64,000 nucleotides of DNA from Candidatus Aenigmatarchaeota archaeon (GCA_026397315.1 JAPLVC010000001.1:149111-213110); one strand, 5' to 3'. Shown: positions 3,804-63,535, counted from the first letter of the stretch. Program-made: numbers and translations. The notes: generated by a model not told the origin, from the sequence alone.

Positions 3804-5549
3804 TTAATTTTTCTTATTTTTTATAATATTGCTAGTCTTGTAATCGCCCAGTTTTTCCCTGATTCTCACAATTTTACACACAATGCCATCTTCAGCCAGA
3901 AGCTTCGCTAGCGCTTTCTCGTCAGCCTTCTGGTCATGGCCCAGCGCTATGATATCCGGCATAGCCCACATTATCGTTTTTAAATAACTGCTTTCTTCTT
4001 TGCCCAAAAATGCACCGTCAACATAAGATATTTCTTCCATGACGGCCAATCGTTGCTTTTCCTCGTTAATAGGTAATCTTCCCTTAAAATTTTTTGCAGT
4101 TTGATCTCTGGCTATTATGACTATCAACAAATCTCCCAATAATTTGGCGGATTTAAGCAAATGTAAATGTCCTGGATGTACTATATCAAAAACTCCTCCA
4201 GTAAGAACAACCTTGAATTTCATCCTACCTTTCTCATTTAGTGAATATTTTCCTGGGAGAAAACCAATTAATGACGATCTTCCTCGACTGCCTAAAAAAA
4301 CTCTATCGCTCATCTTATTTACAAGACCTTCACGTAGGAGTTTGCTAACTATCCTTGCCGTTCTAGTATATGTTCTTTGACATTTTAAAGATAATTCGGG
4401 TATTGTGAAAAAACCATATCTGAGTTCTAAAAGGTATGCTTTTTTTAAAAATTCAACAGAAGCTTTACTGTTAGGAAATTGATATTGTTGATAGGAAGAT
4501 AAAGCAACTTTTAATTTTTCCTTTTTATATTTCAAATCAGAACCAATTTTGGTTTCAAATTTAATAAGCTCACTTCTGTTGTCTATGTTTATTTGCCAAA
4601 CGCTAGAATCTGATTTGATTCCTTTGAACTTGGGTCCCACATATTCTATTCCGACTTTATCCAAAAGTTTGCAATCGCCCAACAGCAGAGGGGGTGGGGT
4701 TTTTTTGTCCCTGTTTACCAATCTTAATACAATTGACCGATGTTTCTTTTTTTGATTAAAATAAACAGAACCATCATCGTCAAAACATCTTCTAATAAAA
4801 GTCGTCAAAAATTTTTCATCGTTACCGAAAACAAAATTCGGAATATTCTGTTTATGTTTTTTCAAGTCCCTTTTAAACAAGCAAAGTGTTACTAATGCAA
4901 TAATCGCAGGTAATTTTATTGTATGGTTTGTTAAACTTTTATTCCAACCACCTTTAGGTTCTTCGATTTGACCAAAAATATTAAAAGCAGCATCCAAGAA
5001 GCTTTTTCTCATTAGAAATGCCTCTTTTTCATCACTTGCTTTTTTCTTCGTGTAGGCTGTGAAATTTTCATTTAAAAAGCCATCATGCATGATTGAAGAG
5101 ATATATAGAGCGCCATTATTTGTATTGAAATTGAAAGGTAGTTTGGGATTCAAAATGCTTTTCCTATAAGTTCCTTTGGGTGTTGTTAATTCAAGAATAT
5201 CTTGGTTCTTGATCAATTTAAAATTGTTAATATAATAAAGTATTTTTATCAAAAGAGACAATTTAATAAACTTTCCTTTATCTAGATTGTATAAGGCAGG
5301 GCAGTATCTTTGTCTTATCTTCTCTCCCAAAAACCTGCCAAACTCTGTCAGATTTTTAAAACCTCCCGTTTTTAAGGATAGAAAAATTAGCTCACGCCCC
5401 TTTTTTTCTGTTAATCTTAAGCTGGTTGAAGGGTGCAAATTCCACAAAAATACAATTCCGGTATTTGGTGGTTTATTGAAAAAATCTTGAGATAACAATT
5501 TTTCATTGAAATTCTCAAACGCTTCTTTTAAAAAATCAATTTCAACCAT
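3804..5549 (-). CDS. fusion protein: N-terminal LAGLIDADG-type homing-endonuclease-like double domain plus C-terminal cytidylyl/adenylyltransferase domain (FAD synthase RibL / TagD-like, HxGH class)
   Basis: Residues ~1-440 contain two LAGLIDADG-like motifs about 100 aa apart: ALYISSIMHDGF and FIRRCFDDDGSVYF. Residues ~441-581 form a complete small nucleotidyltransferase (KFKVVLTGGVFDIVHPGHLHLL ... ISYVD). The whole gene is strongly AT-rich compared with both flanks. Confidence 0.6.
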   Translation of the reverse strand: MVEIDFLKEAFENFNEKLLSQDFFNKPPNTGIVFLWNLHPSTSLRLTEKKGRELIFLSLKTGGFKNLTEFGRFLGEKIRQRYCPALYNLDKGKFIKLSLLIKILYYINNFKLIKNQDILELTTPKGTYRKSILNPKLPFNFNTNNGALYISSIMHDGFLNENFTAYTKKKASDEKEAFLMRKSFLDAAFNIFGQIEEPKGGWNKSLTNHTIKLPAIIALVTLCLFKRDLKKHKQNIPNFVFGNDEKFLTTFIRRCFDDDGSVYFNQKKKHRSIVLRLVNRDKKTPPPLLLGDCKLLDKVGIEYVGPKFKGIKSDSSVWQINIDNRSELIKFETKIGSDLKYKKEKLKVALSSYQQYQFPNSKASVEFLKKAYLLELRYGFFTIPELSLKCQRTYTRTARIVSKLLREGLVNKMSDRVFLGSRGRSSLIGFLPGKYSLNEKGRMKFKVVLTGGVFDIVHPGHLHLLKSAKLLGDLLIVIIARDQTAKNFKGRLPINEEKQRLAVMEEISYVDGAFLGKEESSYLKTIMWAMPDIIALGHDQKADEKALAKLLAEDGIVCKIVRIREKLGDYKTSNIIKNKKN

Positions 5550-14551: not shown

Positions 14552-14565
14552 CTGCTGGTGTGTTA

Positions 14566-17500
14566 ATGGCGGTCGGGGTAAAGGGTAAAAAACAAAAGTT
14601 TAGCTGCGGGGATGCATTGCTGGAAAAAATCAGGCAATGCGCTCCCATAGTTGACGTTTTCCCCGACATAGCTTATTTTAAGGACCTGGATCACAGGAAC
14701 GTTTTCATAAACAAGGCATTCGAGAAATTTGCCGGCCGCAAAAAGAGCGATATCGAAGGTAAGCGCGACGACGAGATTCTGCCGAAGGAGCTGGCACGCC
14801 AGTGCATGAAAAGCGACGACGCCGTCAGGAACGGGAAGCCCGTGCACACCGATGAGGCGCTCACGGACAAAGACGGCAAGACTGCATTCTTCGACACCAT
14901 GAAATTCCCCCTGAGGGACGGGGAAGGCCGGATAATAGGCCTCATGGGCATAAGCCGCGAAATCACCGAAAAGAAGCGCGATGAGCATGAGCTCAGGGAA
15001 AGCGAGGCTTCATACAGAGCCATAGCCGACAACATCCCGGGCATTGTTTACAGGATTCATCTCGAGGGTGAAAAAAGCTTCACGGAATTTTTCAACGAGA
15101 ACGTGCAGACGCTTGCAGGTTATCCGCCGGAGAAGCTCAGTGGCGGCAGGTGCCCGATGGATCCGCTAATAGTCAGCGAAGACAGAAAAAATGTGATAGA
15201 GACCATCGCAAATGCGATAAAGAAAGGGCAGCCGTTCAAGGTGGAATATCGCATAAAGAACAAGAAAGGCGATATCCGCTACTTCGCGGAAAGGGGCAGG
15301 CCCATATTTGACGAGAAAATGAAAGCCGAGCACATAGACGGCGTCATTTTTGACGTGACCCAGAGCAAAAAGGCCGACGACGCCTTCAGAAACGTCATGG
15401 ACCAATACAAGTATCTCTATGATGAAAGCCCCGCCGTCAACATAATAGTCGGCAACAACGGCAAAATAATGGACATAAACAGGAAATCTGCGCAGGCGAT
15501 AGGATACAAAAAAGAAGAACTCGTAGGCAAAAGTATTTTCGACCTGATGACTGCGTCCGATATAAAGAAAGCACTGACAGTCCTTAAAGACAGTATCATG
15601 AACAAGTACACACCAGAGATGGAGCTGGCTATAAAATCAAAAGACGGTTCTATAAGAAGGCTGCTTCTTTCCGAAGGCGGCACGCCAATTTACGATAAAG
15701 GGAAAGCTGTCGGAGTGCTGGTCACGGGCATGGACATAACGGAACGCAAGAAAGCGGAAGAGTTGACAAGGCAAAACGAGGAAAAATACAGGAGTATAAT
15801 CGAGCTGGCTCCGGATGGCATAATCTCCGTGAGCCTGAAAGGAACGGTGACAGCGTGCAATTCGGCCTTCGAAAAACTCACCGGATATTCAAAGGAGGAG
15901 ATTGTAGGCAAGCATTTCACCAGTCTCCCGACCATCAACAAGAAGGACATGCCGAGCTACATAAAATTGTTCACTTCCATCATCAGGGGTAAAATTCCGG
16001 AGTCATTCAAGTTCGAATGGAAACACAAAAACGGCTCCTTGCACATGGGCGAAATCCGCGTTGGCCTGATGAAAAGCGGTAACAAAATAACCGGAATGCA
16101 GGCATTCATAAGTGACATAACAGAAAGATTGATGGTAGAAAAAAGGGCTAAGGAGGACGAAGATAAATACAAGTTCCTGGTCGACAGTATGCAGGAGATA
16201 GCAATTATTCTCAGCAAAACCGGAACGATACTGTTCGCCAACAGGTCTGCCCTTGAAACGCTGGGCTATACTGAAGAGGAGGTTATAGGCAAATCCATCG
16301 TTTCTTTCCTCACGAAAGGCTCGCTCAAGAAAGCCTTATATGCGCTCGCGCAGGAATTCCTCGGCAAACATCAGGAGGAGATGGAAGTCGAGGTCAAAAA
16401 CAAAAAAAGCGAGATAAGGACTTTGCTGATTGCCGAGTCATCAAACCCCATTCACAAAGACGGGAAAATGATCGGGATTCTGGTGAACGCCCGCGACATC
16501 ACTGAGCAGAAAAAGACCAATGAATTGCGCAGGGAAAGCGGGGAACAATTCAGAAAGCTCTTCAACGAGATGCCAGACGCCGTCATCATCCTTGACAAGA
16601 AGGGGACGTTGCTTGAAATGAGCAAAGAAGCTGAAAAGATAAGCGGCTATCCGAGGAATGAATTGATAGGCAGAAACATCTTCGCCACACGTATCCTTGA
16701 CATGAAGACGAAGGCGCTCACTATCAGAAAACTGGCCCTGCATTTTTCCGGCGAAAGTGTTCTGCCATTCGAAGTCAAAATCTACAGGAAAGATGGTGGC
16801 ACCGTCCCGCTTGAAATAAAGCCGCAGATGATTGATTACATGGGAAAGGAGGCTGACCTCATAGCTCTCAGGGACCTCACCGAACGCAAGATAGCTGAGG
16901 CTGCAGTCAGCGAGAACGAGGAAAGGTATAGGATACAGTTCGAAGAGGCGCTGGACACTATTGTAATAGCCAACGCGAAAACAGGCATAATAGTTGACTG
17001 CAACCGCGCAGCAACACAGTTGGTCGGGAGAGACAAGTCGGAGCTTATCGGGCAGCATCAAAGAATACTCCATCCGCCAGAAGATACCAAAGGTCAGTTC
17101 AGCGAGACATTCAAAAAACACATAAGCGTTGCCAAAGGCCAACCATTGGAAGCGCGGATTATCACCAAAAGCGGGGAAATAAAGTTCGTTACCATAAAGG
17201 CCAACCTGATTGAAATGAGGGGTGAAAAATTAATTCAGGGAATATTCAGGGACATTACCGAATGGAAAAGAGTGGAAAACGAGTTGAGAAAGAGTGATGA
17301 ACGCTTCAGGCAGATCACCGAAAATGCTTACGAGTGGGTATGGGAAGTTGACACCAACGGTGTGTATACCTATTCGAACACCATAATTGAAAGGATACTT
17401 GGCTACACATCTGATGAGCTTGTTGGTAAGGTACATTTTTACGATTTATTTGCTCCCGATGTGAAAGAGCAGTTAAAGAAAGCGGCCCTTGAAACCTTCG

Positions 17501-18183
17501 CCAAAAAACAACCTATCAGGGGGTTTATAAACCAGAACCTGCACAAGAACGGCAATATGATCATACTTGAAACGAATTGTGCGCCGATCCTTGATGAAAA
17601 AGGCCGCCTCTTGGGCTACCGTGGCGCTGATACGGACATCACCGAACGCAAAAAGACGGAAGATATTATCAAAGAAAGCGAAAGCAGATACAAGCTGATG
17701 GCCGAGCAAACAGGGCAGGTAATTTATGATTATGAGATTGCATCCGGCGCCATTAAATGGTCCGGGGCGATAATGAATATCACCGGTTACACGCCAGAAG
17801 GGTTGCAAAAAATGGGTATAAAAGAATGGGGGGAATCAATCCATCCGGATGATTCCAAGAATGTCTCGGAACTCCTAGACAAAGCAATTAAGCAATGTAC
17901 GAAATTCGACAGTGAATACAGATTCATGCGTAAGGATGGCAGTTACGTGTACGTCGAGGATAGGGGCATCGTGCTAAAAGATGCGAAAGGTAAGCCATAC
18001 CGCATGCTCGGTACCATGAAAGACATTACTTACAGGAAAAAGGCGGATGATGAAATAAAAAATAGGACAGAGGAACTCGAGCGCTTCAACCGTCTCGCCG
18101 TCGGCAGGGAGTTGAAAATGATCGAGCTTAAAAACAGGATTGAGGATCTGGAAAAAAAGCTCAGGGAAAATAAGGATGCATGA
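14566..18183 (+). CDS. multi-PAS/PAC sensor protein without a recognisable output domain
   Basis: About 1200 aa of repeated PAS-PAC units (repeated DITERKKAEE / DITEQKK junctions). The C-terminus is a coiled coil ending ELERFNRLAVGRELKMIELKNRIEDLEKKL. No HisKA or HATPase domain is seen. Confidence 0.8.
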   Translation: MAVGVKGKKQKFSCGDALLEKIRQCAPIVDVFPDIAYFKDLDHRNVFINKAFEKFAGRKKSDIEGKRDDEILPKELARQCMKSDDAVRNGKPVHTDEALTDKDGKTAFFDTMKFPLRDGEGRIIGLMGISREITEKKRDEHELRESEASYRAIADNIPGIVYRIHLEGEKSFTEFFNENVQTLAGYPPEKLSGGRCPMDPLIVSEDRKNVIETIANAIKKGQPFKVEYRIKNKKGDIRYFAERGRPIFDEKMKAEHIDGVIFDVTQSKKADDAFRNVMDQYKYLYDESPAVNIIVGNNGKIMDINRKSAQAIGYKKEELVGKSIFDLMTASDIKKALTVLKDSIMNKYTPEMELAIKSKDGSIRRLLLSEGGTPIYDKGKAVGVLVTGMDITERKKAEELTRQNEEKYRSIIELAPDGIISVSLKGTVTACNSAFEKLTGYSKEEIVGKHFTSLPTINKKDMPSYIKLFTSIIRGKIPESFKFEWKHKNGSLHMGEIRVGLMKSGNKITGMQAFISDITERLMVEKRAKEDEDKYKFLVDSMQEIAIILSKTGTILFANRSALETLGYTEEEVIGKSIVSFLTKGSLKKALYALAQEFLGKHQEEMEVEVKNKKSEIRTLLIAESSNPIHKDGKMIGILVNARDITEQKKTNELRRESGEQFRKLFNEMPDAVIILDKKGTLLEMSKEAEKISGYPRNELIGRNIFATRILDMKTKALTIRKLALHFSGESVLPFEVKIYRKDGGTVPLEIKPQMIDYMGKEADLIALRDLTERKIAEAAVSENEERYRIQFEEALDTIVIANAKTGIIVDCNRAATQLVGRDKSELIGQHQRILHPPEDTKGQFSETFKKHISVAKGQPLEARIITKSGEIKFVTIKANLIEMRGEKLIQGIFRDITEWKRVENELRKSDERFRQITENAYEWVWEVDTNGVYTYSNTIIERILGYTSDELVGKVHFYDLFAPDVKEQLKKAALETFAKKQPIRGFINQNLHKNGNMIILETNCAPILDEKGRLLGYRGADTDITERKKTEDIIKESESRYKLMAEQTGQVIYDYEIASGAIKWSGAIMNITGYTPEGLQKMGIKEWGESIHPDDSKNVSELLDKAIKQCTKFDSEYRFMRKDGSYVYVEDRGIVLKDAKGKPYRMLGTMKDITYRKKADDEIKNRTEELERFNRLAVGRELKMIELKNRIEDLEKKLRENKDA

Positions 18184-38177: not shown

Positions 38178-38323
38178 TGAGCCCGGCGGGAATCGAACCC
38201 GCGACCCCCAGATGTCTTTCCGCACCTTGTTCTGTCATTGGCTTTCGCCAGAAAGCGATAACCTCAGCATACTTTTATCGAACAGATAAAAGTCTGGTGC
38301 TCTACCGATTGAGCTACAGGCCC
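38178..38323 (-). tRNA. tRNA-Lys (anticodon UUU) with a ~73-nt intron at the canonical 37/38 position
   Basis: Acceptor GGGCCUG/CGGGCUC (two G-U pairs), D-arm GCUC-AAUCGGUA-GAGC, anticodon stem CCAGA/UCUGG, loop CUUUUA+A, T-arm GCGGG-UUCGAUU-CCCGC, discriminator A. Confidence 0.75.
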
Positions 38324-38412: not shown

Positions 38413-38523
38413 CGCCCTGGCCGGGAGTTTCAGACGGACGCAGATAAAATCTGCGTCATGCGCCTTTGAACCCGGGTCCTCGAAGTGACAGTCCGAGATG
38501 ATAGGCCACTACACTACCAGGGC
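38413..38523 (-). tRNA. tRNA-Asp (anticodon GUC) with a 38-nt intron at the non-canonical 59/60 position in the T-loop
   Basis: Acceptor GCCCUGG/CCAGGGC, anticodon stem UCGGA/UUCGA, loop CUGUCAC, T-stem CCGGG / CCCGG with the loop UUCAAA|intron|U, discriminator G. Confidence 0.75.
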
Positions 38524-38630: not shown

Positions 38631-38746
38631 GGTGAGCAGCTATCTGAGGTTCCCCCTTGTTCAGGAGTACTTTCCAGACCGTCGGAAAGTTTAACTTCCG
38701 TGTTCGAAATGGGAACGGGTGAACCTTTCCACTTTGGCCGCTCAAT
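38631..38746 (-). rRNA. rrf: 5S ribosomal RNA
   Basis: The minus strand has ..CACCCGUUCCCAUUUCGAACACGGAAGUUAAAC.., matching the universally conserved 5S loop and helix region. Helix I pairs 5' UGAGCGGC with 3' GCUGCUCA. Length is about 116 nt. Confidence 0.7.
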
Positions 38747-38995: not shown

Positions 38996-39189
38996 TCCCC
39001 CGGGTGAGATTTCCATACGCGAAAGCTGCTGGTTTTCGCTTAAGCCTTTTCAACAAAAGGCTTATTTTGAACTCACAACCTATCGGTTTCTGAAGCGACT
39101 GCGAATGACCAACACACTCGTAAAACCGAGTTTAAGTCACCGTGCGAGAGTCTACAGCCGATCGCTCCACCAGATTGAGCTACCGAGGG
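38996..39189 (-). tRNA. tRNA-Tyr (anticodon GUA, C1-G72) with two introns (~64 nt at 37/38 and ~57 nt at 59/60)
   Basis: Acceptor CCCUCGG/CCGGGGG, D-arm GCUC..GAGC, anticodon stem AUCGG/CCGAU, loop CUGUAG|intron|A, T-stem GUGAG/CUCAC perfect, T-loop UUCAAA|intron|U, discriminator A. C1-G72 is the archaeal/eukaryal Tyr identity pair. Confidence 0.7.
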
Positions 39190-39208
39190 ATGCACGCAAT
39201 ACGCGTAA

Positions 39209-39218
39209 TATTATATAA
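39209..39218 (-). promoter_or_regulatory. TATA-box-like element upstream of tRNA-Tyr
   Basis: The minus strand reads TTTATATAAT, centred about 25 nt upstream of the tRNA 5' end. Confidence 0.4.
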
Positions 39219-39405
39219 ACGTCTCCAGAATTTAAATATTGGCCAGACCACGGTCATTATCAGTCGGAGTATAAGAACGGTGGAATCCTTTATCTAAAAA
39301 TGTTCTTTTTTAGTTTTTTGTTGTCTTTTTGAATAGCACTTGAACCATTAATTGCATTTTGTGTTTCGTGCGCCCATCTATCAGGTTATCAGATGCTTTA
39401 TGATA

Positions 39406-42360
39406 TCAACATCCGGGTTTGCTGCCTTTTCCGAAGTCCTTGCCTATCGTGACCAGATCGAAAATGTTGACTCCCGAGTCATGGTTTATGTCAGCAGCCA
39501 CGTTGAAGCCGGAAGTCAAACCGAAGTTTGTGGCGACAAGAACCGCATCGGAAATATCCACGCAGTGGTCCCCGGTCGTATCGCCGGAGCACAACGGGTC
39601 AGTGCCGTCGCAATTCTCGTCTGCGCTATTGTCGCATATTTCTGTTGTTGGGTTTATTGATCCTGTGCAGTTGCTCCATTGTCCTGCTACGCAGGTTTGG
39701 TTTCCTAGTTTGCAGATTCCTATGTTGTTTGTTCCGCATGTTTTTTTCTGCCCTGCTGTGCAGTTGCATGTAGAGCATAATGAAAGATTAACTCCATATG
39801 AATTTCCTTCAGGCAATACTATTGACAAATTGCCATAACTATTCGTAATGGCAGTTGTATTCAGAATTGAATTGATAAATAGATTATAAGTCCTGTCTGG
39901 AATAAGACCTGTTTTATTCATGATTGTTGGTTTATCCATCCTTTCTACGTAAAATGTCGTTTTAATATTAGACAGATTCTTTATTACAAACCAATTAGCA
40001 GATGCGTTAGAATAACAGTTTTGAGTTGGTGAGATAAATGTGTAGTTTGCAATTGTAATTTTTTGGTTGCAATAATGATATATGTTAAAATTTGATTTAT
40101 TCATCACGTAGTATTTTGTGTTATTAATTGTTTTTACTAATTCTCGCATATACAATTCATTGCCCGAATAATTTAGATGCACAACATCATAAAGAAGCGA
40201 AGTATTCCCTCCCATCAAATACTGAATTTCCATAAAGGGAATCTGATTGTCAATTGCGATTTGCCTTAAGCCAGCATCATATAATGATTGAATTGTGCGA
40301 TTGTCATAATTTGTTATATATAATGTAGTTGTAGAAGTTATTAGAGTTGTGTTTAAAGCATTGTTTTTTATTCCCTCAAGTAATATCCTGGCATCTCTTG
40401 TGTACTCTGAAGCTGATACTCCCTTCGGAATATCATTTATGTTTGGGAGAACATACGCGAAGCGAGGATTGTACGAAACAACGTCATTCATATATCTATT
40501 TACAGCACTTGTAGCAGGATTTGGGCACGTGCTAGCTAAGCAAGACCCGTCTATCCCTTTATTCACGGAGGTTAGATTCCAAAATGAGTAATTTGTAGCT
40601 AATTCTAAAGCCGCAGGTGCGATGAAACTTCCACGAGGAAACCCCCTCATTACAGAATCACCAAGGCCAAGAAGAGTATTATTCCAAGAATTGACTGCGG
40701 GTGTCGTGCCGTTCACTGTTATATTAATGTTTGGAGTGAAGTCCCCGAACCATTCCACTCCCTCTTTAAGCATCCTCCATCTTAGTACATATGTTCCGAG
40801 CTTGGATGGAGCGATGATGGTGAACCTGAACTCCTTGCTCGACCCGGGATTCACTATCTCACCCTGATTAAGAAATGCTCCGGAAATAACCCAAACGCTG
40901 TCATTCCCTGATTGAATCCCCAGACGATGAGAACTCGCCTTAGTCCATGCCGTCGTACCAGTATTATTCATGGTGACAGAGATATTATAATTTTTTCCAG
41001 CAGCCATCCTTGTTGGAATAGACTGTGAGACGAACCGAGCATTATTCACAGGAGGCTGAGTCGTATTTTGATACTTGCAGCTTTGATTGCACAGCCCGGT
41101 TCCTGGTGCCTTGCCATTGCAGGATTGTGATGCGTTGCAGGCGGAATCACAGAGGTTATTTCCAGAACCGCCAGGCCTTACTGTTAATGTACCATTGCAT
41201 TTTGCTTGTTCCGCGTTTCTATAGCTGACTCCGTTCACCCCGCAGAATGGATTCGGGTCCTGGATGCTGCACATGACTTCTTTCCCCCAGGCTTTATGCT
41301 GGGCCAGCATATCAGGGACATGCAAGCCAATTCCCAAGCACTTCATTGTGGTGGCTGAAAGATATGCATTATAAGCCGCGGCAGTAGAATATGTGAATCC
41401 TATCACTCCTACCACATCAGAATCAGATTTAGCCCAATCATAATACCATTGCTGCTGGCAAATGCTCGGTATCTGACTTATGCCCCAGCCTCCGCCATAT
41501 TGATTGCACTTAAAATTCTGCGGTATCAAAAGTATTTTTTTGGAGGAATCAGAATGAACAACCCTATCAATCTCGGCCAATTGTTCCGCTGTACATCCAT
41601 CGGGATAAGGCTCATCACAAGGGGCATATTGGATTATAGTGCCGCCGGATTTAACCCAATAAAAAACATCGTTCATTTGATCAAGGAAAGATTGTTTATT
41701 AGCGGCATTGCATGCGAAAGGGTTTGTATGCGAAGCTTCATAATCAGTGGTGAAAAAGTATGGGTCAAGGGCTATAAAGTCTAATTTTGGATTATTGAGA
41801 ACTGATCTGCCGCCATCGCCGCCCCAAGCCACATTAAAAACAATAAATGTCTCTATATTTGGAAAGTATTCTTTTGATAGATTGATAATCAAATCAACTC
41901 TTTCTGGATGATGTATAAACTCAAAATAATTATACGTGTTTGGCTCATCCATCAAATAAAATGACCAGACTTTATCAGCATTAGCGCCAAGATTAGTCTT
42001 TATCTTATCGAGGCAGCTTCGCCACACACTTTCTGATTCCCAAAAATTATGTGCATAATAAGATGTAAGCGAAAGAATTATCTTATGACCATTATTATAT
42101 GCAAAATTTATATTCGTGTCATAAGTCTTATTGCTGGTATCACAGGAAGCACCAATAAAAACGATGTTCGTGAAGAGGGAGAGATTCGCCTCTTCTGCGG
42201 TGCCGGTCCTCACAGGGGCGCCATAAAATCCATAATATTTTAAGTTGGTCGAAGAAGCTTGCGCGATTCCGATAGTATTTTCAAATAGACATGAAATGAT
42301 TAAGACGACGGTAGTAATTACTAATAAGAGAATGGGCCTCTTCATAAAAACAATAATCAT
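39406..42360 (-). CDS. large secreted Cys-rich protein with a putative glycoside-hydrolase-like N-terminal region and a C-terminal dockerin-like Ca-binding repeat
   Basis: A signal peptide is followed by ~950 aa with many Cys, many N-x-S/T sequons and a LMDEPN segment. The C-terminus ADINHDSGVNIFDLV matches the dockerin/EF-hand loop DxNxDxxVNxxD. The gene is AT-rich relative to its neighbours. Confidence 0.6.
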   Translation of the reverse strand: MIIVFMKRPILLLVITTVVLIISCLFENTIGIAQASSTNLKYYGFYGAPVRTGTAEEANLSLFTNIVFIGASCDTSNKTYDTNINFAYNNGHKIILSLTSYYAHNFWESESVWRSCLDKIKTNLGANADKVWSFYLMDEPNTYNYFEFIHHPERVDLIINLSKEYFPNIETFIVFNVAWGGDGGRSVLNNPKLDFIALDPYFFTTDYEASHTNPFACNAANKQSFLDQMNDVFYWVKSGGTIIQYAPCDEPYPDGCTAEQLAEIDRVVHSDSSKKILLIPQNFKCNQYGGGWGISQIPSICQQQWYYDWAKSDSDVVGVIGFTYSTAAAYNAYLSATTMKCLGIGLHVPDMLAQHKAWGKEVMCSIQDPNPFCGVNGVSYRNAEQAKCNGTLTVRPGGSGNNLCDSACNASQSCNGKAPGTGLCNQSCKYQNTTQPPVNNARFVSQSIPTRMAAGKNYNISVTMNNTGTTAWTKASSHRLGIQSGNDSVWVISGAFLNQGEIVNPGSSKEFRFTIIAPSKLGTYVLRWRMLKEGVEWFGDFTPNINITVNGTTPAVNSWNNTLLGLGDSVMRGFPRGSFIAPAALELATNYSFWNLTSVNKGIDGSCLASTCPNPATSAVNRYMNDVVSYNPRFAYVLPNINDIPKGVSASEYTRDARILLEGIKNNALNTTLITSTTTLYITNYDNRTIQSLYDAGLRQIAIDNQIPFMEIQYLMGGNTSLLYDVVHLNYSGNELYMRELVKTINNTKYYVMNKSNFNIYHYCNQKITIANYTFISPTQNCYSNASANWFVIKNLSNIKTTFYVERMDKPTIMNKTGLIPDRTYNLFINSILNTTAITNSYGNLSIVLPEGNSYGVNLSLCSTCNCTAGQKKTCGTNNIGICKLGNQTCVAGQWSNCTGSINPTTEICDNSADENCDGTDPLCSGDTTGDHCVDISDAVLVATNFGLTSGFNVAADINHDSGVNIFDLVTIGKDFGKGSKPGC

Positions 42361-42504
42361 AAATATTATATATAAAACAATAAATTTGCGTTAAGTCTAT
42401 ACAAGGTTGCCAAAAAATAATCGATTCTGGGAATTTAAAATAAAAGTATTGAAACAAAGTCCTGATTTATCCGTATTCGATTCTTAAAAAATTATTCGGC
42501 CGCT

Positions 42505-43866
42505 TTACTCCAGGATGACTTCACGAGAGAAGACTTTTGTCTTCCCTTCGCTTTCTTCCATGCCCGTCCTGTAGGAAATGTATGCCCTCGGCATCTTGAG
42601 CTGCGCCTCGACGAGCGGCTGAATCTTGTATGAAAGGTAAATCTGGCTTCTCGGCTTCATGTCGCCGAGATTCCAAAAGAGCTCGGTCCCGTATTCCGTT
42701 TCCCTTATGACCGGCTTGGGCCCGCCAAACTCGGGAAGGACTTTGCCGAGCGCCGTTACCCTGTCCTTGACTATGACGTTCTTCAGGTCGCTCATGACAG
42801 GGCCCTTTATCTCGAGAACTATGATGTGTTCGTTCCTCTTTTTCACGTGGCTCTTCTTTATCGACGGCGCCCTGACCTTGACCGCGCCCATTCCCAGAAG
42901 AGCGACAAGGCAGAATATCATGATGAAGGAGCCGATGACGAAGGGTAGCCTGCTTATGTTGTATACGAATGAGACGCTCTTGCCAACTGCAAGACCCTCG
43001 ACCCTCCAGTTGTAGCTGACGGCGCTGCCATCTATGAGCGTGCTGGACGGTGTGTCGACAAAGCCAACATACTGGTTCGCCTGCACGCTGTCAGAAGCGA
43101 CGTAGTCTTCAGGTGTGTTGCCTTCATTCGTGACTGTTATTATGACATCCTGTCCAAAAGGCGTGGAAACGACTTCCTTCTTGGTCACGACCTCGTGTAT
43201 GGCAGTGACTGCGAACGAACTCTGCGCCTTCACGCCGAATTCCGGCATGTCGACCTTGACTATGTAATTGCCGGCGAGAAGTTCGCCGAGTTCGAATGCC
43301 TGGGTGATGACCCCTATACCACTGACCTGCTTATTCATTTCAAAATGCTTTACAAGGTTGCCGCCGGCATCGAAAACATCGAAAGGTATTTTCACGGTCC
43401 TGCTGCTCTTGGACGTGACTTTCGCCTCCACCAGAAGCTGGGTTCCAGTGATTTCGCTTTTCAGTTCCTTGACGTCGAACTCCTTTTCCGGAATAACTGT
43501 AAGCTCTATGGCTTTGGAGTCAATCCTTTCAGTGTGGTCTTTCGCATAAACAATGACGCTGTAGTCGTATTTCCCCTCGAGAGTCGGGTAGAAGAAAAGG
43601 CCTATGTCCTGGCTTTCGCCGCCGGCAATGGTCGTGAAATAGCCGCCCAGGTTAAGCCATTCGAGATGCGGGCCGGTGACCGTTATCACGAACTCCTCGG
43701 ACATCGGGTAGTCATTATTTATCTGTATATTATACCACCCGTTCTGTCCAGTCTCCACTTCGACTGAAGAAGGCGAGACGCTTATCTCGACGGCGCGCGC
43801 GGGACTTGCAAAAAATGCGAGCGAAAAAATTGACAAAACACAGACTAATAGGACTAGCTTTTTCAT
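42505..43866 (-). CDS. cell-surface protein (signal peptide, beta-rich ectodomain, single TM anchor, cytoplasmic tail)
   Basis: N-terminal MKKLVLLVCVLSIFSLAFFASPARA, an internal TM helix LPFVIGSFIMIFCLVALLGMGAV, and a ~120-aa C-terminal tail. Confidence 0.55.
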   Translation of the reverse strand: MKKLVLLVCVLSIFSLAFFASPARAVEISVSPSSVEVETGQNGWYNIQINNDYPMSEEFVITVTGPHLEWLNLGGYFTTIAGGESQDIGLFFYPTLEGKYDYSVIVYAKDHTERIDSKAIELTVIPEKEFDVKELKSEITGTQLLVEAKVTSKSSRTVKIPFDVFDAGGNLVKHFEMNKQVSGIGVITQAFELGELLAGNYIVKVDMPEFGVKAQSSFAVTAIHEVVTKKEVVSTPFGQDVIITVTNEGNTPEDYVASDSVQANQYVGFVDTPSSTLIDGSAVSYNWRVEGLAVGKSVSFVYNISRLPFVIGSFIMIFCLVALLGMGAVKVRAPSIKKSHVKKRNEHIIVLEIKGPVMSDLKNVIVKDRVTALGKVLPEFGGPKPVIRETEYGTELFWNLGDMKPRSQIYLSYKIQPLVEAQLKMPRAYISYRTGMEESEGKTKVFSREVILE

Positions 43867-45173: not shown

Positions 45174-45734
45174 TCATTCAAAGAAGCCGAGCTTGTTCAT
45201 AATTTGTCTGACTTCCGGTGAAAATGAATCCAGATTGATGAAATTTTTGATTTTTATATGGCCACGGTTTCTCTCGGCAAAATCCATTAAACTTTCCATG
45301 AAATATGATGCTCCTTTTGCGAAATCTTTTCTGGCAACATCTGACGCAATTTCCTTCTCACGCCCCATGAAACTTTTCTCAAACAGCCTGTAAAGTCTGA
45401 AATTAGACAGCTTACCACCAACAGTCAGATAGCCTTTGTATTTGTCGTTTGTAATGTCTGGGTTGAGGAGATTTATGCGCAGTAATTTTTCTTCACCGTG
45501 TCTTATATCACTGCTTCTAACTAAATGCGCAGGTAAAAACGTACCTCTTTGAGTAAGCATACCATCTTCTATAGCGACATGAATACCTGACTCGCTGAAA
45601 TCTATTCCTGTATTACTGGCTTCTCCGAAAGGTCTATATGCAATGGACGGAAATCCGTTTCGGTATGTTGTTTCTATTACAGAAACAGGAGCGAATTTAG
45701 CATCCTGAACGTAATTCTGGCTTGGCATAAACAA
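45174..45734 (-). CDS. conserved hypothetical protein
   Basis: 186 aa with typical codon usage and no recognised domain. Confidence 0.5.
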   Translation of the reverse strand: MFMPSQNYVQDAKFAPVSVIETTYRNGFPSIAYRPFGEASNTGIDFSESGIHVAIEDGMLTQRGTFLPAHLVRSSDIRHGEEKLLRINLLNPDITNDKYKGYLTVGGKLSNFRLYRLFEKSFMGREKEIASDVARKDFAKGASYFMESLMDFAERNRGHIKIKNFINLDSFSPEVRQIMNKLGFFE

Positions 45735-54860: not shown

Positions 54861-55916
54861 ATGTTAAGCGTCTTCGATATTTTCAAAATAATTCTCGGGA
54901 TAATAATATCGGTATTTATCATATTCGTCGTCATGAAATTCGTCGGCTCATACATGGAAATCGGCGAGTCGGGCAGACAGGTCTCTTTGATGGTCAACTT
55001 CAAGAAAACGGTCGAGAACGTCTACACCACGGGTATATCAACCGACTTCGAACTCAAGGAGAGCGAAATTCTCGATTACAGGCCGCCGTTAATCGAGACC
55101 GAGAGCACGGTCATTGACACCAGTCCCACGCCAACGTTGCTGCTGCCAGGCAAAAAGCTCTCGGTTGGTAGGGTTGATTACGAAATTGGGTGGTGGAAGT
55201 TCTATGTCATAGAGGCGCTGCCTGACACGAAAATAATATTTGTCGTTCCGGAGGCGGACGAGACGACGTGGGCCCTGGTGGGCAACATCACTAAGGCGCT
55301 TCCGTCGACTGAGAACACTGAAACCAAGGTCTGGTTCGGCGTTGGATGCACCAACAAGACTGCCCCGAATTTCGGATGGGAAGGAAAAAAATTCACGGAC
55401 AGCATTATTCCGGGCATAATATCCATCAAAAAGGAATTCGAGCTCTGCGAAAATGCGGCATACTGGAAAGAAAAAGACTATAAGCTGGTCACCATAACGC
55501 AGACGCCGGGTGAAGAAGATTTCGTTGTAAAGCCCGGCGATAACGGCATAGGCCACGTTTACATAAAGACAGACGATGGCTACAGCGATTACATTTACAG
55601 GAACAACATCGACATCGCGGCTTTGCTGCTGGGCGGGCAGATATTTTACAGGTACATGAGCGGGAAATTCCTGAGCGAGCTTGACGTCGCCGCCAGCGTC
55701 GCGCAGAAGGAGTATGGCCTTCTGATGACTAACACGGAAATAGCCAGGCGATGCAGCAAAGACGTCAGCGACTTCCTGGCGATTCTGGACGCGATAAGAG
55801 AAACGATACCTAAGGTCAAGGACGGCCAGAACGAGGAGTTAATCGCGGAATTTGCCGGGTATCTGGGGGATTCGCGGGCGAAGTTCAGGCAACTCGAGAG
55901 TGAGGGATGCGCATGA
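54861..55916 (+). CDS. N-terminally anchored pilin-like or membrane protein (large)
   Basis: A hydrophobic N-terminal helix and a 320-aa extracytoplasmic domain. It lies in the pilin cluster. Confidence 0.35.
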   Translation: MLSVFDIFKIILGIIISVFIIFVVMKFVGSYMEIGESGRQVSLMVNFKKTVENVYTTGISTDFELKESEILDYRPPLIETESTVIDTSPTPTLLLPGKKLSVGRVDYEIGWWKFYVIEALPDTKIIFVVPEADETTWALVGNITKALPSTENTETKVWFGVGCTNKTAPNFGWEGKKFTDSIIPGIISIKKEFELCENAAYWKEKDYKLVTITQTPGEEDFVVKPGDNGIGHVYIKTDDGYSDYIYRNNIDIAALLLGGQIFYRYMSGKFLSELDVAASVAQKEYGLLMTNTEIARRCSKDVSDFLAILDAIRETIPKVKDGQNEELIAEFAGYLGDSRAKFRQLESEGCA

Positions 55917-56395
55917 AAACGAAGGGACAGATGCACATGATGGAATACGTGCTGCTCAGCTTTTTCGTCCTGCTCATAATAGTCGTCGTCACTTTTTTCC
56001 TCACTGGATGGCAGATAAGCTCGACGCGCTCGGAGCGCAGGGAAGTCGAATACCAGAAAGCGGAATTCCTGCTGCGCACGATAGCCAACTCGCCGTACAT
56101 AAACAGGAATACGTACAAGGAAGGCTCGATGCTTGAGGACTCTAAGCTCACGTCGATAACGTGCGAAGAGTTCCAAACGCTTTACGGCACCGGCTGGTAT
56201 GCCGAAATCGAAATTCCCGGTTTCAACGATGCCTGCCTGCCTGACGTCTATCCGTTGTGTGGCAGCTGGAGCTACTGCAAAGACGAAAGTAAAGAAGCGA
56301 TGATATTCGACATACCAGTGAACATATACAGGAAGATGACTGGCGCAGTCGACGCAGGATTCCTGAGGGTAGGAGTGTATATAAATGCGAATTAA
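55907..56395 (+). CDS. pilin-like protein (class III signal peptide candidate)
   Basis: MRMKTKGQ|MHMMEYVLLSFFVLLIIVVVTF. Confidence 0.5.
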   Translation: MRMKTKGQMHMMEYVLLSFFVLLIIVVVTFFLTGWQISSTRSERREVEYQKAEFLLRTIANSPYINRNTYKEGSMLEDSKLTSITCEEFQTLYGTGWYAEIEIPGFNDACLPDVYPLCGSWSYCKDESKEAMIFDIPVNIYRKMTGAVDAGFLRVGVYINAN

Positions 56396-56888
56396 TGAGT
56401 ATCAGAACTGCACCAGGAAAGGCCAGACGAGCATAATGCTCATAGTCCTCGTAGTCGTAATATTCTTCGTCATAGGTATATTCCTCCTTGTCTCGTCCAT
56501 AAAGCCCGTTAACAACGAATATTACAACCTCTATGCACACAATCTGCTGCTTTCGGTTCTCAGGAGCAACACCGGATACGGAGGATACTGCGACACGTAT
56601 TCGGCAACGATTTCATGCGCCTACATGACTTCTTACAGGAAGTGCGGCGGCGTTGAATGCAGCAACCTTTCGGCGGAAATAGTACCTCAACTCATAGAGC
56701 GCCTGATAAAGCCCAGCATGGATTACTGTATGATAATCGAGCCTGAAAACGGCACCTTTGGCAGCCAGATTGTTTACGGGCCGCGGTGCGACGTGGTCAT
56801 GGGAAAGAAGTCCGTGTGGACGGCCAACGAGAAGATTCTGCAGTACGGGGCGAACCTCAACATCCGCATGACGATAGCCGAGACGTAG
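56385..56888 (+). CDS. pilin-like protein (class III signal peptide candidate)
   Basis: ...NCTRKGQ|TSIMLIVLVVVIFFVIGIFLL. Confidence 0.55.
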   Translation: MRINEYQNCTRKGQTSIMLIVLVVVIFFVIGIFLLVSSIKPVNNEYYNLYAHNLLLSVLRSNTGYGGYCDTYSATISCAYMTSYRKCGGVECSNLSAEIVPQLIERLIKPSMDYCMIIEPENGTFGSQIVYGPRCDVVMGKKSVWTANEKILQYGANLNIRMTIAET

Positions 56889-56928: not shown

Positions 56929-57846
56929 TTGTCAATTTTTTATAATATTATGAAAGATGTACCCGACGGTATGGCCACGACATCCGATGTGGCAAACTAT
57001 CTTGGCATTTCCCCAACAACTGTCAGAAGATACTTGACTCCAGCAGATAAACTTGGTAATAGTAATGTGTACAAATGGAGCGACGTCAAAAAGCTAGAAA
57101 TTGAGATGGGCCACACATCGGATGCTACAGAAGCTCTTTCGCCTGAAAATATTGGAATTGATACAGGGTCTTTTGACGCAAGCGCCGTTTTATACGATGC
57201 ATTGAACCGGCTATCAAAAAACATCAGAAGAGTCACTCGGGAGAGAAACGGGCTAAAAGTCGAAGCCGCCCTTGGCCCTAATGGCAAGTACACTGGAGAT
57301 AACGTGGTAGAAGGCGTGACCCATGTCACCAGATATAGAAGAAGTGTTGAATCTGCAGAACTTTTTAAATACATCCCGTTGGAAGATTTGGTCAAAAAGA
57401 GAGTGTTCACTCCTTCTTATGACATGAAAAAACTGCGCAAAATAGGACCAAACCTTGTTTCTAGAGTTGTCATAGCAACGCTGAAAGACATTGAAAAATA
57501 TTGCAAAGAAAATGGTATAGAAATTGAAAAAATTGGCAGGAAAAAACTGGCAACCTTGACCAGCGACTTTAGAAAGAAAACAAAGACAAAAATACCGCCA
57601 GTAATACTCAAAGAAATGATAGAAGACCGTCACTATGGAAAGATCAGTGCCGGTGCTGTAAGGGACTATGCTACTGATATTCTGAAAAGTTGCATCAAAA
57701 AGACACCATACACGAGAGAACTTAAAGTAAGACTCACGGCTGAATACAGAAACTCTGTGCAAAAAATCATAGAAGAAGTTGAAAATAATGCTACGAAACA
57801 AACTGAAAGCGAGATAAACAGACTTTTCGGCATAGATGATATTTAA
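56929..57846 (+). CDS. HTH-domain protein (MerR/excisionase-like N-terminus), rest unknown
   Basis: ATTSDVANYLGISPTTVRRYL is a helix-turn-helix. The gene is AT-rich, unlike its flanks. Confidence 0.5.
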   Translation: MSIFYNIMKDVPDGMATTSDVANYLGISPTTVRRYLTPADKLGNSNVYKWSDVKKLEIEMGHTSDATEALSPENIGIDTGSFDASAVLYDALNRLSKNIRRVTRERNGLKVEAALGPNGKYTGDNVVEGVTHVTRYRRSVESAELFKYIPLEDLVKKRVFTPSYDMKKLRKIGPNLVSRVVIATLKDIEKYCKENGIEIEKIGRKKLATLTSDFRKKTKTKIPPVILKEMIEDRHYGKISAGAVRDYATDILKSCIKKTPYTRELKVRLTAEYRNSVQKIIEEVENNATKQTESEINRLFGIDDI

Positions 57847-62422: not shown

Positions 62423-63535
62423 TTATTTTAATTTAACAGCCCAATATGACGGATCTGACTTGGCTCCCATTTTCCTTTTCATGTCGTCTAGCCCCCTAAG
62501 CTCGGATCCTCCGAGAAGAACTTCGTCGAAATTTCTTGCCTCCAAGTCTTCAAAGATAGTGAGATAAGTTGCTGCCGGCATTGCAGTAAAACCTCTTTTC
62601 CGTTCCTTTTTGTCTGCAATTGTTTCATTAGGATTCATTCCAAGTTCATTGAATACAAACATCGTATCTCTTAGTGTAAACGGCGTATATAAAGCGACTC
62701 TCTTGTCAGAAAGTTTCTCACCAACAAACAATGAGACAGGCAGATTGTCCAAAAAACCTAAATGCGCAATTGTAGAATCCAATCTTGCTATTTTTGCATC
62801 TATAGAATTGTAGTGATCTTCGGGAACAGAGCCAACTTGCTTGCCTGCTTTTCTGAGCATATCAAAATGCTTTTCAACAATAATCTTTGCAATCTCATAA
62901 TCTTCTTCTCCTCGATATTGTCTTAGGTGATATCTCAGTCCATTTCTTTTTAAAAAGTTATCAAATCTGTTGGACGCCAGTCTTAATTTTTCATTGCTTT
63001 TGATTGCATTATCCAAATTTATCAAAGAATGTGAAAAGGTTTCATCCTCTCTAGAGGCAGATGCATGCCAAGGATTATGAGATTCATCCACAGACAGAAA
63101 GCCTTTATTTAATAGTTCATCGTATTGTTCTCTGATCAAAAAACGTGCATAAACTCCTTTGCAAGGTATTTTGCAATCACTTATTGCAGCATCAGTAAAT
63201 TCCATGATTTTCTTTGTTGCATTTCTACCTCTGGGTGAAACCACAAAAATATAGCCAGTAGAATCTTTTGGGTCCGATTCTTTCCTGTAGTATCCGATGG
63301 AAAATAAGGTTTCTCCGTCTTCAAAAACCAGCCCGAACGGATGATTTGAACTCCTACCTCTCGAGTTATTACCGTTTGAGTAGAGGGCAAAACCTATATT
63401 GCTTACGCCATAACTGCCATCTTTGTATCTGTCGATTGTTCCTTTTCGGGCTTCTTCTGCCGTAAAGGACCTGACACTGTCAAAATTTTCCAGTAAATAT
63501 TTTTCCAGGATGTCTCTATTATTTTCGCTACTCAT
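62423..63535 (-). CDS. hypothetical protein
   Basis: 370 aa, AT-rich, no recognised domain. Confidence 0.5.
   Translation of the reverse strand: MSSENNRDILEKYLLENFDSVRSFTAEEARKGTIDRYKDGSYGVSNIGFALYSNGNNSRGRSSNHPFGLVFEDGETLFSIGYYRKESDPKDSTGYIFVVSPRGRNATKKIMEFTDAAISDCKIPCKGVYARFLIREQYDELLNKGFLSVDESHNPWHASASREDETFSHSLINLDNAIKSNEKLRLASNRFDNFLKRNGLRYHLRQYRGEEDYEIAKIIVEKHFDMLRKAGKQVGSVPEDHYNSIDAKIARLDSTIAHLGFLDNLPVSLFVGEKLSDKRVALYTPFTLRDTMFVFNELGMNPNETIADKKERKRGFTAMPAATYLTIFEDLEARNFDEVLLGGSELRGLDDMKRKMGAKSDPSYWAVKLK

Follow-up and report, generated by a model that had tools for sequence, protein, structure and literature searches.

A dockerin-bearing protein with a GH-A-like barrel, predicted to be secreted, in a single-gene insertion beside an archaeal tRNA-Tyr gene

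The window analyzed here is a stretch of 64,000 nucleotides from Candidatus Aenigmatarchaeota archaeon (GCA_026397315.1 JAPLVC010000001.1:149111-213110), and its minus strand contains, at 39406-42360, an open reading frame (ORF) of 984 amino acids (aa), for which an original prediction had proposed a secreted, Cys-rich and sequon-rich product ending in a dockerin-like calcium-binding repeat. Both the ORF and a Sec-type signal were confirmed in the translation. From the N to the C terminus, the protein is composed of a signal peptide, a barrel, a Kazal-like Cys knot, an NBR1-type Ig domain, an SGNH domain, an Asn-rich segment, a MopE-like module and a dockerin, whose positions are as follows.

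39406..42360, minus strand: whole ORF, 984 aa from the first ATG
42253..42345, minus strand: signal peptide, residues 6-36, Sec-type (MKR, hydrophobic core, boundary between AQA and SS), read from the translation
41266..42252, minus strand: (beta/alpha)8 barrel, residues ~37-365, from AlphaFold2 (AF2), Foldseek and alignment A1
41053..41265, minus strand: Kazal-like module and Cys-rich knot, residues 366-436, 7 Cys, motif PFCGVNGVSYRNAEQAKC
40726..41028, minus strand: NBR1-type Ig-like domain (PF16158), residues ~445-545, from Pfam
40126..40683, minus strand: SGNH/GDSL hydrolase domain, residues ~560-745, from Pfam Lipase_GDSL_2 and motifs
39778..40125, minus strand: Asn-rich segment, residues 746-861, 9 sequons, no detectable relatives
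39589..39777, minus strand: MopE-like Cys-rich module, residues 862-924, 10 Cys, Pfam PF11617 at E 0.018
39433..39588, minus strand: dockerin, residues 925-976, two calcium-binding F-hand repeats, tail DFGKGSKPGC

An identical protein is recorded publicly as MCX6817414.1 on a 231,741-bp contig, under the source name 'NBR1-Ig-like domain-containing protein [Candidatus Aenigmarchaeota archaeon]'; it starts five codons later (MKRP) and counts 979 aa. The ATG at 42345 (MKRP..., 979 aa), which is preceded by an AT-rich, TATA-like stretch, is likely the real start of the ORF. The mature sequence is rich in sequons as predicted, with 31 N-x-S/T sites, about twice the 15.7 +/- 3.5 expected from 20,000 shuffles (z 4.4); none of these shuffles reached 31, and the reversed motif occurs 19 times. 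The protein contains 33 Cys, which cluster within residues 366-436 and 862-924, so that the predicted Cys-richness holds while its placement in the middle of the protein does not. The secreted protein is probably stabilized by disulfides and, judging from the excess of sequons, probably N-glycosylated. As for the domain content, the dockerin and the barrel fold had been recognized, whereas the NBR1-Ig, SGNH, Kazal-like and MopE-like modules had been overlooked.

By sequence comparison, the C-terminal module is a true two-repeat dockerin, more than a generic EF-hand. Its calcium loops, DTTGDHCVDISD at 927-938 and DINHDSGVNIFD at 957-968, are both intact and 12 residues long, which bears out the second, preceding repeat that the original prediction had discerned. 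The same module terminates seven relatives that share the barrel (P0002, P0004, P0014, P0015, P0016, P0018 and P0028), and a profile built from eight family C-termini, those of the target and seven relatives (A2), retrieved the Cel48 dockerin 2y3n_B from the PDB at E 1.3e-14, 2jnk_A at 7e-9 and the CipA type II dockerins at 1e-8 to 1e-7. The target alone retrieved 2y3n_B by phmmer at E 4.9e-4. Furthermore, Pfam Dockerin_1 was matched by all eight family members (best E 5.9e-7), and both target loops align in register with the two repeats of 2y3n_B and with the seven relatives. No other ORF of the window carries a dockerin-type calcium-loop motif.

Comparison of the target module with the dockerins of contigs L003 and L022-L024 and of loci L001, L011 and L016 distinguished two classes, an 'enzyme' class ending in ...VFVASRFT and an 'adaptor' class ending in ...DFGxGxxC with Cys before the module. 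The target dockerin shares 43-53% identity with the dockerins of cohesin-bearing adaptors versus 24-37% with the enzyme-borne, VASRFT-type dockerins, including those of its own barrel relatives, and is by this measure of the adaptor class. Moreover, its MopE-like module and dockerin together are homologous to the C-terminus of the L003 adaptor (coh2 residues 243-357 against window positions 39409-39744; 40% identity, E 1e-18, tblastn). The existence of two dockerin classes suggests two cohesin specificities, as in the type I and type II cellulosomal pairs.

The genomic setting of these adaptors is best seen on L003, an Aenigmatarchaeota-like archaeal contig with four same-strand genes in a row. 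The first encodes a 987-aa DUF6259 protein with a dockerin at its end; the second (coh1-type) a 220-aa protein that combines an N-terminal transmembrane helix with a cohesin (PF00963); the third (coh2) the 357-aa adaptor, composed of signal peptide, cohesin, MopE-like Cys module and dockerin; and the last is P0004, which lies directly downstream of both cohesin genes and matches the Aenigmatarchaeota protein P0002 along its entire length with 55-58% identity. The syntenic contigs L022-L024 contain the same kind of cassette, whose cargo is different and comprises dockerin-bearing Laminin_G_3 and beta-helix proteins. Every cohesin protein of the relatives bears one cohesin, either transmembrane-anchored or in a cohesin-plus-dockerin adaptor, and no multi-cohesin primary scaffoldin was found among them. 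The evidence bearing on calcium-dependent binding is indirect, in that cohesin genes neighbour homologues in L003, L022 and L023. We infer that the target dockerin would bind a cohesin in its own organism, and, by analogy with cellulosomes, it would plausibly dock where the adaptors dock, on a membrane-anchored cohesin.

The cassettes of these Aenigmatarchaeota-like contigs occupy a common hot-spot (L003 3109-11726; L022 1454-3700; L023 2086-9909; L024 2-5459), flanked by LigT/ATPase_2 on one side and by Na/H-exchanger/RadA/RPA/DUF373 on the other. Its content is variable and includes a transmembrane-anchored cohesin, one or two cohesin-plus-dockerin adaptors, and large dockerin proteins with DUF6259, Laminin_G_3, beta-helix or GH-A-like barrel modules.

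At the other end of the protein, AF2 modeling from a 15-sequence alignment (A1) returned a barrel with a predicted local distance difference test score (pLDDT) of 91 and a predicted TM-score (pTM) of 0.89, in which eight strand-helix units lead into a small Cys-rich subdomain; the barrel also contains long insertions and a number of conserved Cys. The top-ranked Foldseek matches in the PDB belonged almost without exception to clan GH-A of the glycoside hydrolases (GH), namely GH164 beta-mannosidase, GH10 xylanases, GH42, GH5 mannanase, GH158 and GH2, with E-values of 1e-6 to 1e-4, a probability of 1.0, TM-scores of 0.45-0.57 and identities of 9-14%. At the sequence level, residues 30-440 had no Pfam, NCBIfam or PDB match, PDB sequence searches with the barrel profile found no glycosidase, and a single barrel relative matched Pfam Cellulase (GH5) at E 0.02, below threshold. 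The modeled fold thus supports clan GH-A glycosidases as the closest known structures, and the barrel itself is a new, previously undescribed family.

Members of clan GH-A employ two catalytic Glu residues: that of an Asn-Glu-Pro sequence following strand 4 serves as acid/base, and one following strand 7 as nucleophile. When alignment A1 was read against the predicted strands, D138-E139-P140 was invariant after strand 4, which would place Glu139 at the acid/base position, behind an invariant Asp instead of Asn; the LMDEPN motif singled out by the original prediction is indeed present, at 136-141. After strand 6, D199-P-Y201-F is invariant, except that P200 is only nearly so. The nucleophile position after strand 7, in a G-Q/E-S-F type motif, is occupied by Gln281; Gln is found here in 13 of the 15 aligned members, and Glu in P0020 as well as in P0028, the latter outside the alignment. 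Conserved aromatic residues follow strand 8, where PSxCQQxWYY spans 298-307. With Gln in place of the nucleophile Glu and no GH profile match, the predicted TIM-barrel glycosidase is supported as a fold, on the strength of the model and its GH-A matches, and stays putative as an enzyme assignment.

The barrel family is small. With E<=1e-3 as the limit, an exhaustive HMMER search of 1.84 billion representative sequences found 21 proteins, of which some ten are full-length relatives, and a survey of one genome per species across 185,579 species found nine loci, distributed over two Aenigmatarchaeota metagenome-assembled genomes (MAGs), one Woesearchaeota MAG (three copies), two archaeal MAGs and one Patescibacteria MAG. 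On these sequence searches, the family is very rare and confined to DPANN archaea or Patescibacteria. Its archaeal members end in dockerins and its bacterial members in PG_binding_1 or other wall-type modules; further members bear Ig-like, LamG or repeat modules. The bacterial P0003, for instance, ends in PG_binding_1, at a locus (L002) with FtsW, MurG and an M23 peptidase. The simplest reading of these alternative termini is that the anchor has been swapped to suit the envelope, and the sequences fit a surface-displayed enzyme with interchangeable anchors. The P0003 gene (L002 5279-10426, a Patescibacteria-like contig) lies between the genes for the N- and C-terminal halves of a split transketolase and looks like a further insertion.

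Between barrel and dockerin, the second predicted enzymatic part is the SGNH domain. Lipase_GDSL_2 matched residues 566-735 at E 5.8e-7 over profile positions 2-177 of 178, with 30.6 bits against a cut-off of 32.9. The diagnostic blocks LGDSV (566-570), NKGIDGS (600-606), PNINDI (639-644) and DVVHLN (725-730) are all recognizable and supply S568 of G-D-S, G603/G605, N642 of NIND, and D725-x-x-H728, so that the Ser-Asp-His triad is intact; as read from these motifs, the domain is likely an active esterase. The NBR1-type Ig domain scored 31.9 bits against a cut-off of 28 (E 2e-7, residues 450-540), in agreement with the database annotation, and is shared by the matches P0005-P0011. The Kazal-like motif PFCGVNGVSYRNAEQAKC, recognized by the core pattern C-x-x-x-G-x-x-Y-x-N-x-C, follows the barrel and is conserved together with it in relatives. 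Support for its Kazal affinity is weak, with Kazal_2 found in only three relatives at E 7.5e-4 and leech-derived tryptase inhibitor (LDTI) matched in the PDB at E 0.067 with profile A1.

The gene stands out from its surroundings in composition, with a GC content of 0.41 and a third-codon-position GC (GC3) of 0.39 versus GC3 values of 0.62-0.74 in the rpo genes, tpiA and the 453-aa neighbour. A scan of Joint Genome Institute (JGI) metagenomes with this neighbour as query found five related contigs, and the following features were delineated around the gene.

39192..42503, no strand assigned: inserted segment of 3.3 kb, GC 0.40, delimited by comparison with syntenic relatives; inner limits possibly ~39240 and ~42495
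42505..43866, minus strand: upstream gene, 453 aa, native, with a signal peptide, a beta-rich ectodomain and a transmembrane segment; GC3 0.66
38996..39189, minus strand: tRNA-Tyr(GUA) with two introns, directly downstream of the insertion
38631..38745, minus strand: 5S rRNA, from Rfam
38178..38323, minus strand: tRNA with a 74-nt intron, detected by Rfam and missed by ARAGORN; anticodon loop UUU, i.e. Lys

The contig closest to the window, L017, is 98-99% identical to it in the rpoB halves, 98% in the 5S rRNA and 95.5% in intergenic DNA, and L018, L019 and L020 are increasingly distant. Together, and each as far as its contig extends, these four share the order tpiA, 453-aa gene, spacer, conserved RNA, 5S rRNA, tRNA, rpoH and rpoB, and at this one site the 984-aa gene is missing from all four (4/4). 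In the window, homology to L017 ends at ~42504 and restarts at 39191. A promoter-like element, TTTAAATTCT, is shared by the window, L018 and L020, and its presence in both of these contigs places the inner limit of the insertion perhaps at ~39240. The segment was inserted just upstream of this element, ~45 bp upstream of tRNA-Tyr and outside the tRNA gene, and its cargo consists of the 984-aa gene only, with AT-rich flanks of 143 bp upstream and 214 bp downstream. No integrase accompanies the insertion, no flanking direct repeats of at least 14 nt and no inverted repeats of note were found, and a weak GGCC(G)AATA repeat is the sole repeat at both junctions. An integrative genomic island was rejected on these grounds, since integrase and att-type repeats are lacking and the insertion is not inside the tRNA.

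That four syntenic relatives lack the gene, and that its composition is deviant, together indicate a single-gene insertion of ~3.3 kb. Horizontal acquisition, which the original prediction had deduced from AT-richness against the GC-rich rpo and tpiA genes, is strongly supported by these sequence comparisons (GC3 0.39 against ~0.7); the predicted AT-rich island shrinks to this one-gene insertion, as the upstream 453-aa gene, also conserved in relatives without the insertion, is native. An AT-richer DPANN donor fits the GC content of 42-44% in the genomes that hold the nearest barrel and tail relatives. Database searches yielded no close donor sequence for the inserted segment, and no relatives were found on viral contigs.

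The rRNA/tRNA cluster said to adjoin the gene was confirmed as a 5S rRNA and intron-bearing tRNAs. The tRNA-Tyr(GUA) has a 64-nt intron at the canonical 37/38 site, a 55-nt intron within the T-loop and the archaeal C1-G72 pair; it is conserved in L017-L020. It was overlooked by ARAGORN on raw DNA and by Rfam in gathering and E-value modes, and was called by ARAGORN after in-silico splicing. A weak tRNA-like match at 38469-38523 on the minus strand (19 bits, E 0.79), between the intron-bearing tRNA and the 5S rRNA, may represent an unusual or split tRNA. L017 has its own GC-rich insertion of ~90 bp (~2626-2719) between the conserved promoter-like element and tRNA-Tyr, which marks the short spacer as a recurrent indel target.

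We favor, with a probability of roughly 0.55 for the explanation as a whole, the reading that the 984-aa gene encodes a secreted multi-domain carbohydrate-active enzyme, displayed by its dockerin, which a tiny-genome DPANN archaeon of the Aenigmarchaeota type recently acquired as a single-gene insertion. After export by the Sec pathway, the dockerin would bind in a calcium-dependent manner to the cohesin of a membrane-anchored surface protein and thereby display the barrel and the esterase at the cell surface, where the two might act jointly on an acetylated glycan, either a polysaccharide from the environment or a partner cell's envelope or exopolymer. We infer both the catalytic activity and the substrate. 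The barrel would retain its acid/base Glu, with Asp-Glu replacing Asn-Glu and Gln replacing the nucleophile Glu, and, if active, would most likely not operate by classical double displacement. Hexosaminidases with neighbouring-group participation possess an adjacent Asp-Glu pair and no enzymic nucleophile; such participation of a 2-acetamido group is a candidate route for the barrel.

Several observations weigh against the favored reading. A glycoside-hydrolase profile search had been proposed with the original prediction as a check, and the barrel matched no GH family profile in Pfam or NCBIfam; the catalytic nucleophile expected of clan GH-A is replaced by Gln281, and the active-site positions were mapped by predicted secondary structure and not by superposition, so that the barrel could be non-catalytic. 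The SGNH score falls 2.3 bits under the Pfam cut-off; residues 545-870 found no relatives at E<=1e-3 among 5.8 billion proteins and nothing meaningful by PDB phmmer, and AF2 without an alignment gave an unusable model of residues 556-870 (pLDDT 31). Taken alone, the target scored 16.2 bits against Pfam Dockerin_1 as a whole protein and 22.2 bits as an isolated stretch of 64 residues, with a cut-off of 22.9. Within the 64-kb window, no cohesin was detected by Pfam scans of 20 proteins or by tblastn and phmmer with the L003 cohesins, and a cohesin hidden Markov model (HMM) from 25 sequences, run without filters, gave a best E of 0.23. The complete Aenigmatarchaeota genome of P0002 has no cohesin within 10 kb of it, and a matching cohesin may be absent from the host, since the gene arrived alone. 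The 453-aa neighbour was considered as a hidden cohesin and dismissed for want of sequence support; being native and conserved in relatives without the insertion, it is not a dedicated dockerin partner.

These points bear on two alternatives. If the gene came without its cohesin, the dockerin would be an orphan, the protein would be released or otherwise retained, and the module would serve as a calcium-binding, stabilizing tail. We regard this as unlikely, albeit deserving serious consideration: the insertion carried a single gene and co-transferred no cohesin, the window contains none, the loci of dockerin-bearing homologues often have none within 10 kb, and archaeal dockerins without scaffoldins are on record (PMC9012536, citing Peer et al. 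2009). However, the cohesin search covered 64 kb of the genome, the class-specific tail DFGKGxxC is preserved along with both calcium loops, and lineages of similar GC content with similar dockerins possess membrane-anchored cohesins. Somewhat more doubtful again is a catalytically dead, lectin-like barrel that binds glycans, in a protein acting mainly as an adhesin to host or substrate with the SGNH domain as its sole enzymatic part. Gln in place of the nucleophile Glu in the majority of family members, the missing GH profile match, several modules of binding type (NBR1-Ig, Cys-rich repeats) and the restriction of the family to ultra-small, presumably host-attached lineages would all suit such a role; yet little or no variation is found in D-E-P, D199, Y201 and the W/Y residues near strand 8, all of them at those C-terminal strand ends where active sites are located, and Glu at the nucleophile position in two members suggests a functional polar residue of the catalytic site rather than decay.

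The remaining alternatives fare far worse. A classical cellulosomal plant-cell-wall enzyme, i.e. a cellulase or xylanase with an acetyl-xylan esterase on a multi-cohesin scaffoldin, would account for the likeness in fold to GH10, GH5 and GH164 and for the pairing of SGNH esterase and dockerin that typifies cellulosomal hemicellulases. We consider it very improbable and rejected it, as no known GH or carbohydrate-binding module (CBM) family is matched, the nucleophile Glu is missing, the cohesin proteins of relatives carry single cohesins with no multi-cohesin scaffoldins, and the barrel family is absent from cellulolytic taxa. The most improbable of the explanations is an assembly or binning artefact in which the AT-rich segment was joined chimerically from another organism. 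Composition does change abruptly at both ends of the gene; nevertheless, the flanks are collinear with relatives right up to the insertion point, and an independent Logan assembly of SRR20698647 contains both junctions on an 11.8-kb contig with tpiA, the 453-aa gene, the target, rpoH and rpoB, which makes a chimera unlikely.

Beyond the favored reading of a displayed carbohydrate-active enzyme, a broader and distinctly speculative proposal, to which we would give lower odds than to either the orphan or the lectin-like alternative, is that Aenigmatarchaeota-type DPANN archaea possess a minimal, membrane-anchored cohesin-dockerin display system with horizontally exchanged cargo, including a barrel that processes N-acetylated envelope glycans of the host or partner. 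No less tentatively, its parts would be a transmembrane-anchored cohesin, cohesin-dockerin adaptors, two dockerin specificity classes and a barrel with a non-canonical active site. Within this same conjecture, cargo genes might move between symbiont lineages as single-gene insertions, with the window as one transfer caught.

Elsewhere in the window, four genes have a GC3 of 0.30-0.37 against a background of ~0.65-0.75: 3804-5549 (minus), 45174-45734 (minus), 56929-57846 (plus) and 62423-63535 (minus). One has a cytidylyltransferase-like C-terminus, one a helix-turn-helix, and two have no Pfam match; all four are probably additional foreign insertions. For the gene at 45174-45734, tblastn found no match between the homologues of its two neighbours in L018, L019 and L021, which suggests that it is absent from these contigs. 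At 14560-18183 on the plus strand, a 1207-aa protein consists almost wholly of about nine PAS domains and is followed by a protein with seven transmembrane (7TM), Cache and HAMP domains, a solute-binding protein and a HAMP-HisKA-HATPase kinase, a sensory cluster that is unusually elaborate for a DPANN-labeled genome. Three consecutive small genes at 54861-56888 (plus), with N-terminal hydrophobic segments and no Pfam match, may encode archaeal pilin-like or surface proteins.

To our knowledge, little is understood of the way in which ultra-small DPANN archaea and Patescibacteria attach to partner cells and feed on them, and most of their surface proteins lack annotation. A rare, enzyme-like barrel shared only by two radiations rich in episymbionts, with a dockerin in the archaea and a peptidoglycan-binding module in the bacteria, points to surface display as a common theme, and compact cassettes with membrane-anchored cohesins are now seen in Aenigmatarchaeota-like genomes. 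The insertion also offers a clean, dated case of a lone gene transferred horizontally into the conserved surroundings of rRNA, tRNA and rpo genes. Should the barrel be active without the nucleophile Glu, it would constitute a new GH family and perhaps add a new mechanistic variant to the GH-A fold. In the searchable library, no literature was found that connects dockerins, cohesins or cellulosomes with DPANN archaea or Aenigmarchaeota, and the only example found from the candidate phyla radiation (CPR) was a Shapirobacterales MAG (10.1101/2021.08.21.457207). Dockerins in archaea are already known; what is new is a dockerin on a barrel restricted to DPANN and CPR, with an atypical active site, and carried by a single-gene transfer.

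Compared with type I dockerins (PF00404; Cel48 of Bacteroides (Pseudobacteroides) cellulosolvens, PDB 2Y3N chain B), the target has the same C-terminal module of ~60 residues on a secreted enzyme and the same two repeats, each with a 12-residue calcium loop (D1, N/D/T3, D5, D/N9, D12) followed by a helix. It differs in its DPANN host, in the MopE-like Cys module before and the Cys-containing tail after the dockerin, and in belonging to a class otherwise borne by cohesin-bearing adaptors. With clan GH-A (the 4/7 superfamily; GH164 6T7G, GH10, GH5, GH42, GH158), the barrel shares the (beta/alpha)8 fold, the x-E-P Glu after strand 4, a Tyr after strand 6, a polar residue in G-x-S-F after strand 7 and aromatics after strand 8, whereas Asp precedes the acid/base Glu in place of Asn, Gln replaces the nucleophile, and overall identity is 9-14%. 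The SGNH domain has blocks I, II, III and V in common with SGNH/GDSL carbohydrate esterases (CE) fused to glycosidases, as well as the fusion to a glycosidase-type barrel and a dockerin; in contrast to them, it is extremely divergent and could not be placed in a CE family.

Among whole systems, the Ruminococcus bromii amylosome is a non-cellulolytic cohesin-dockerin enzyme system (PMC4611034) that likewise displays glycan-active enzymes at the cell surface by means of small scaffoldins; it is bacterial and directed at starch with GH13 enzymes, whereas the relatives of the target anchor through an N-terminal transmembrane helix. Archaeoglobus fulgidus and the anaerobic methanotrophic (ANME) archaea possess non-cellulosomal cohesin-dockerin proteins, and archaea are reported to lack multi-cohesin scaffoldins (PMC9012536, citing Bayer 1999, Haimovitz 2008 and Peer 2009). 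These systems resemble the one described here in consisting of archaeal surface proteins whose single cohesins and dockerins have nothing to do with cellulose degradation, in carrying variable cargo domains, and in a gene content that varies between close relatives. They differ from it in that the cargo here is a new GH-A-like barrel with an SGNH esterase and that the relatives of the target show a compact cassette of a transmembrane-anchored cohesin, cohesin-dockerin adaptors and several dockerin enzymes.

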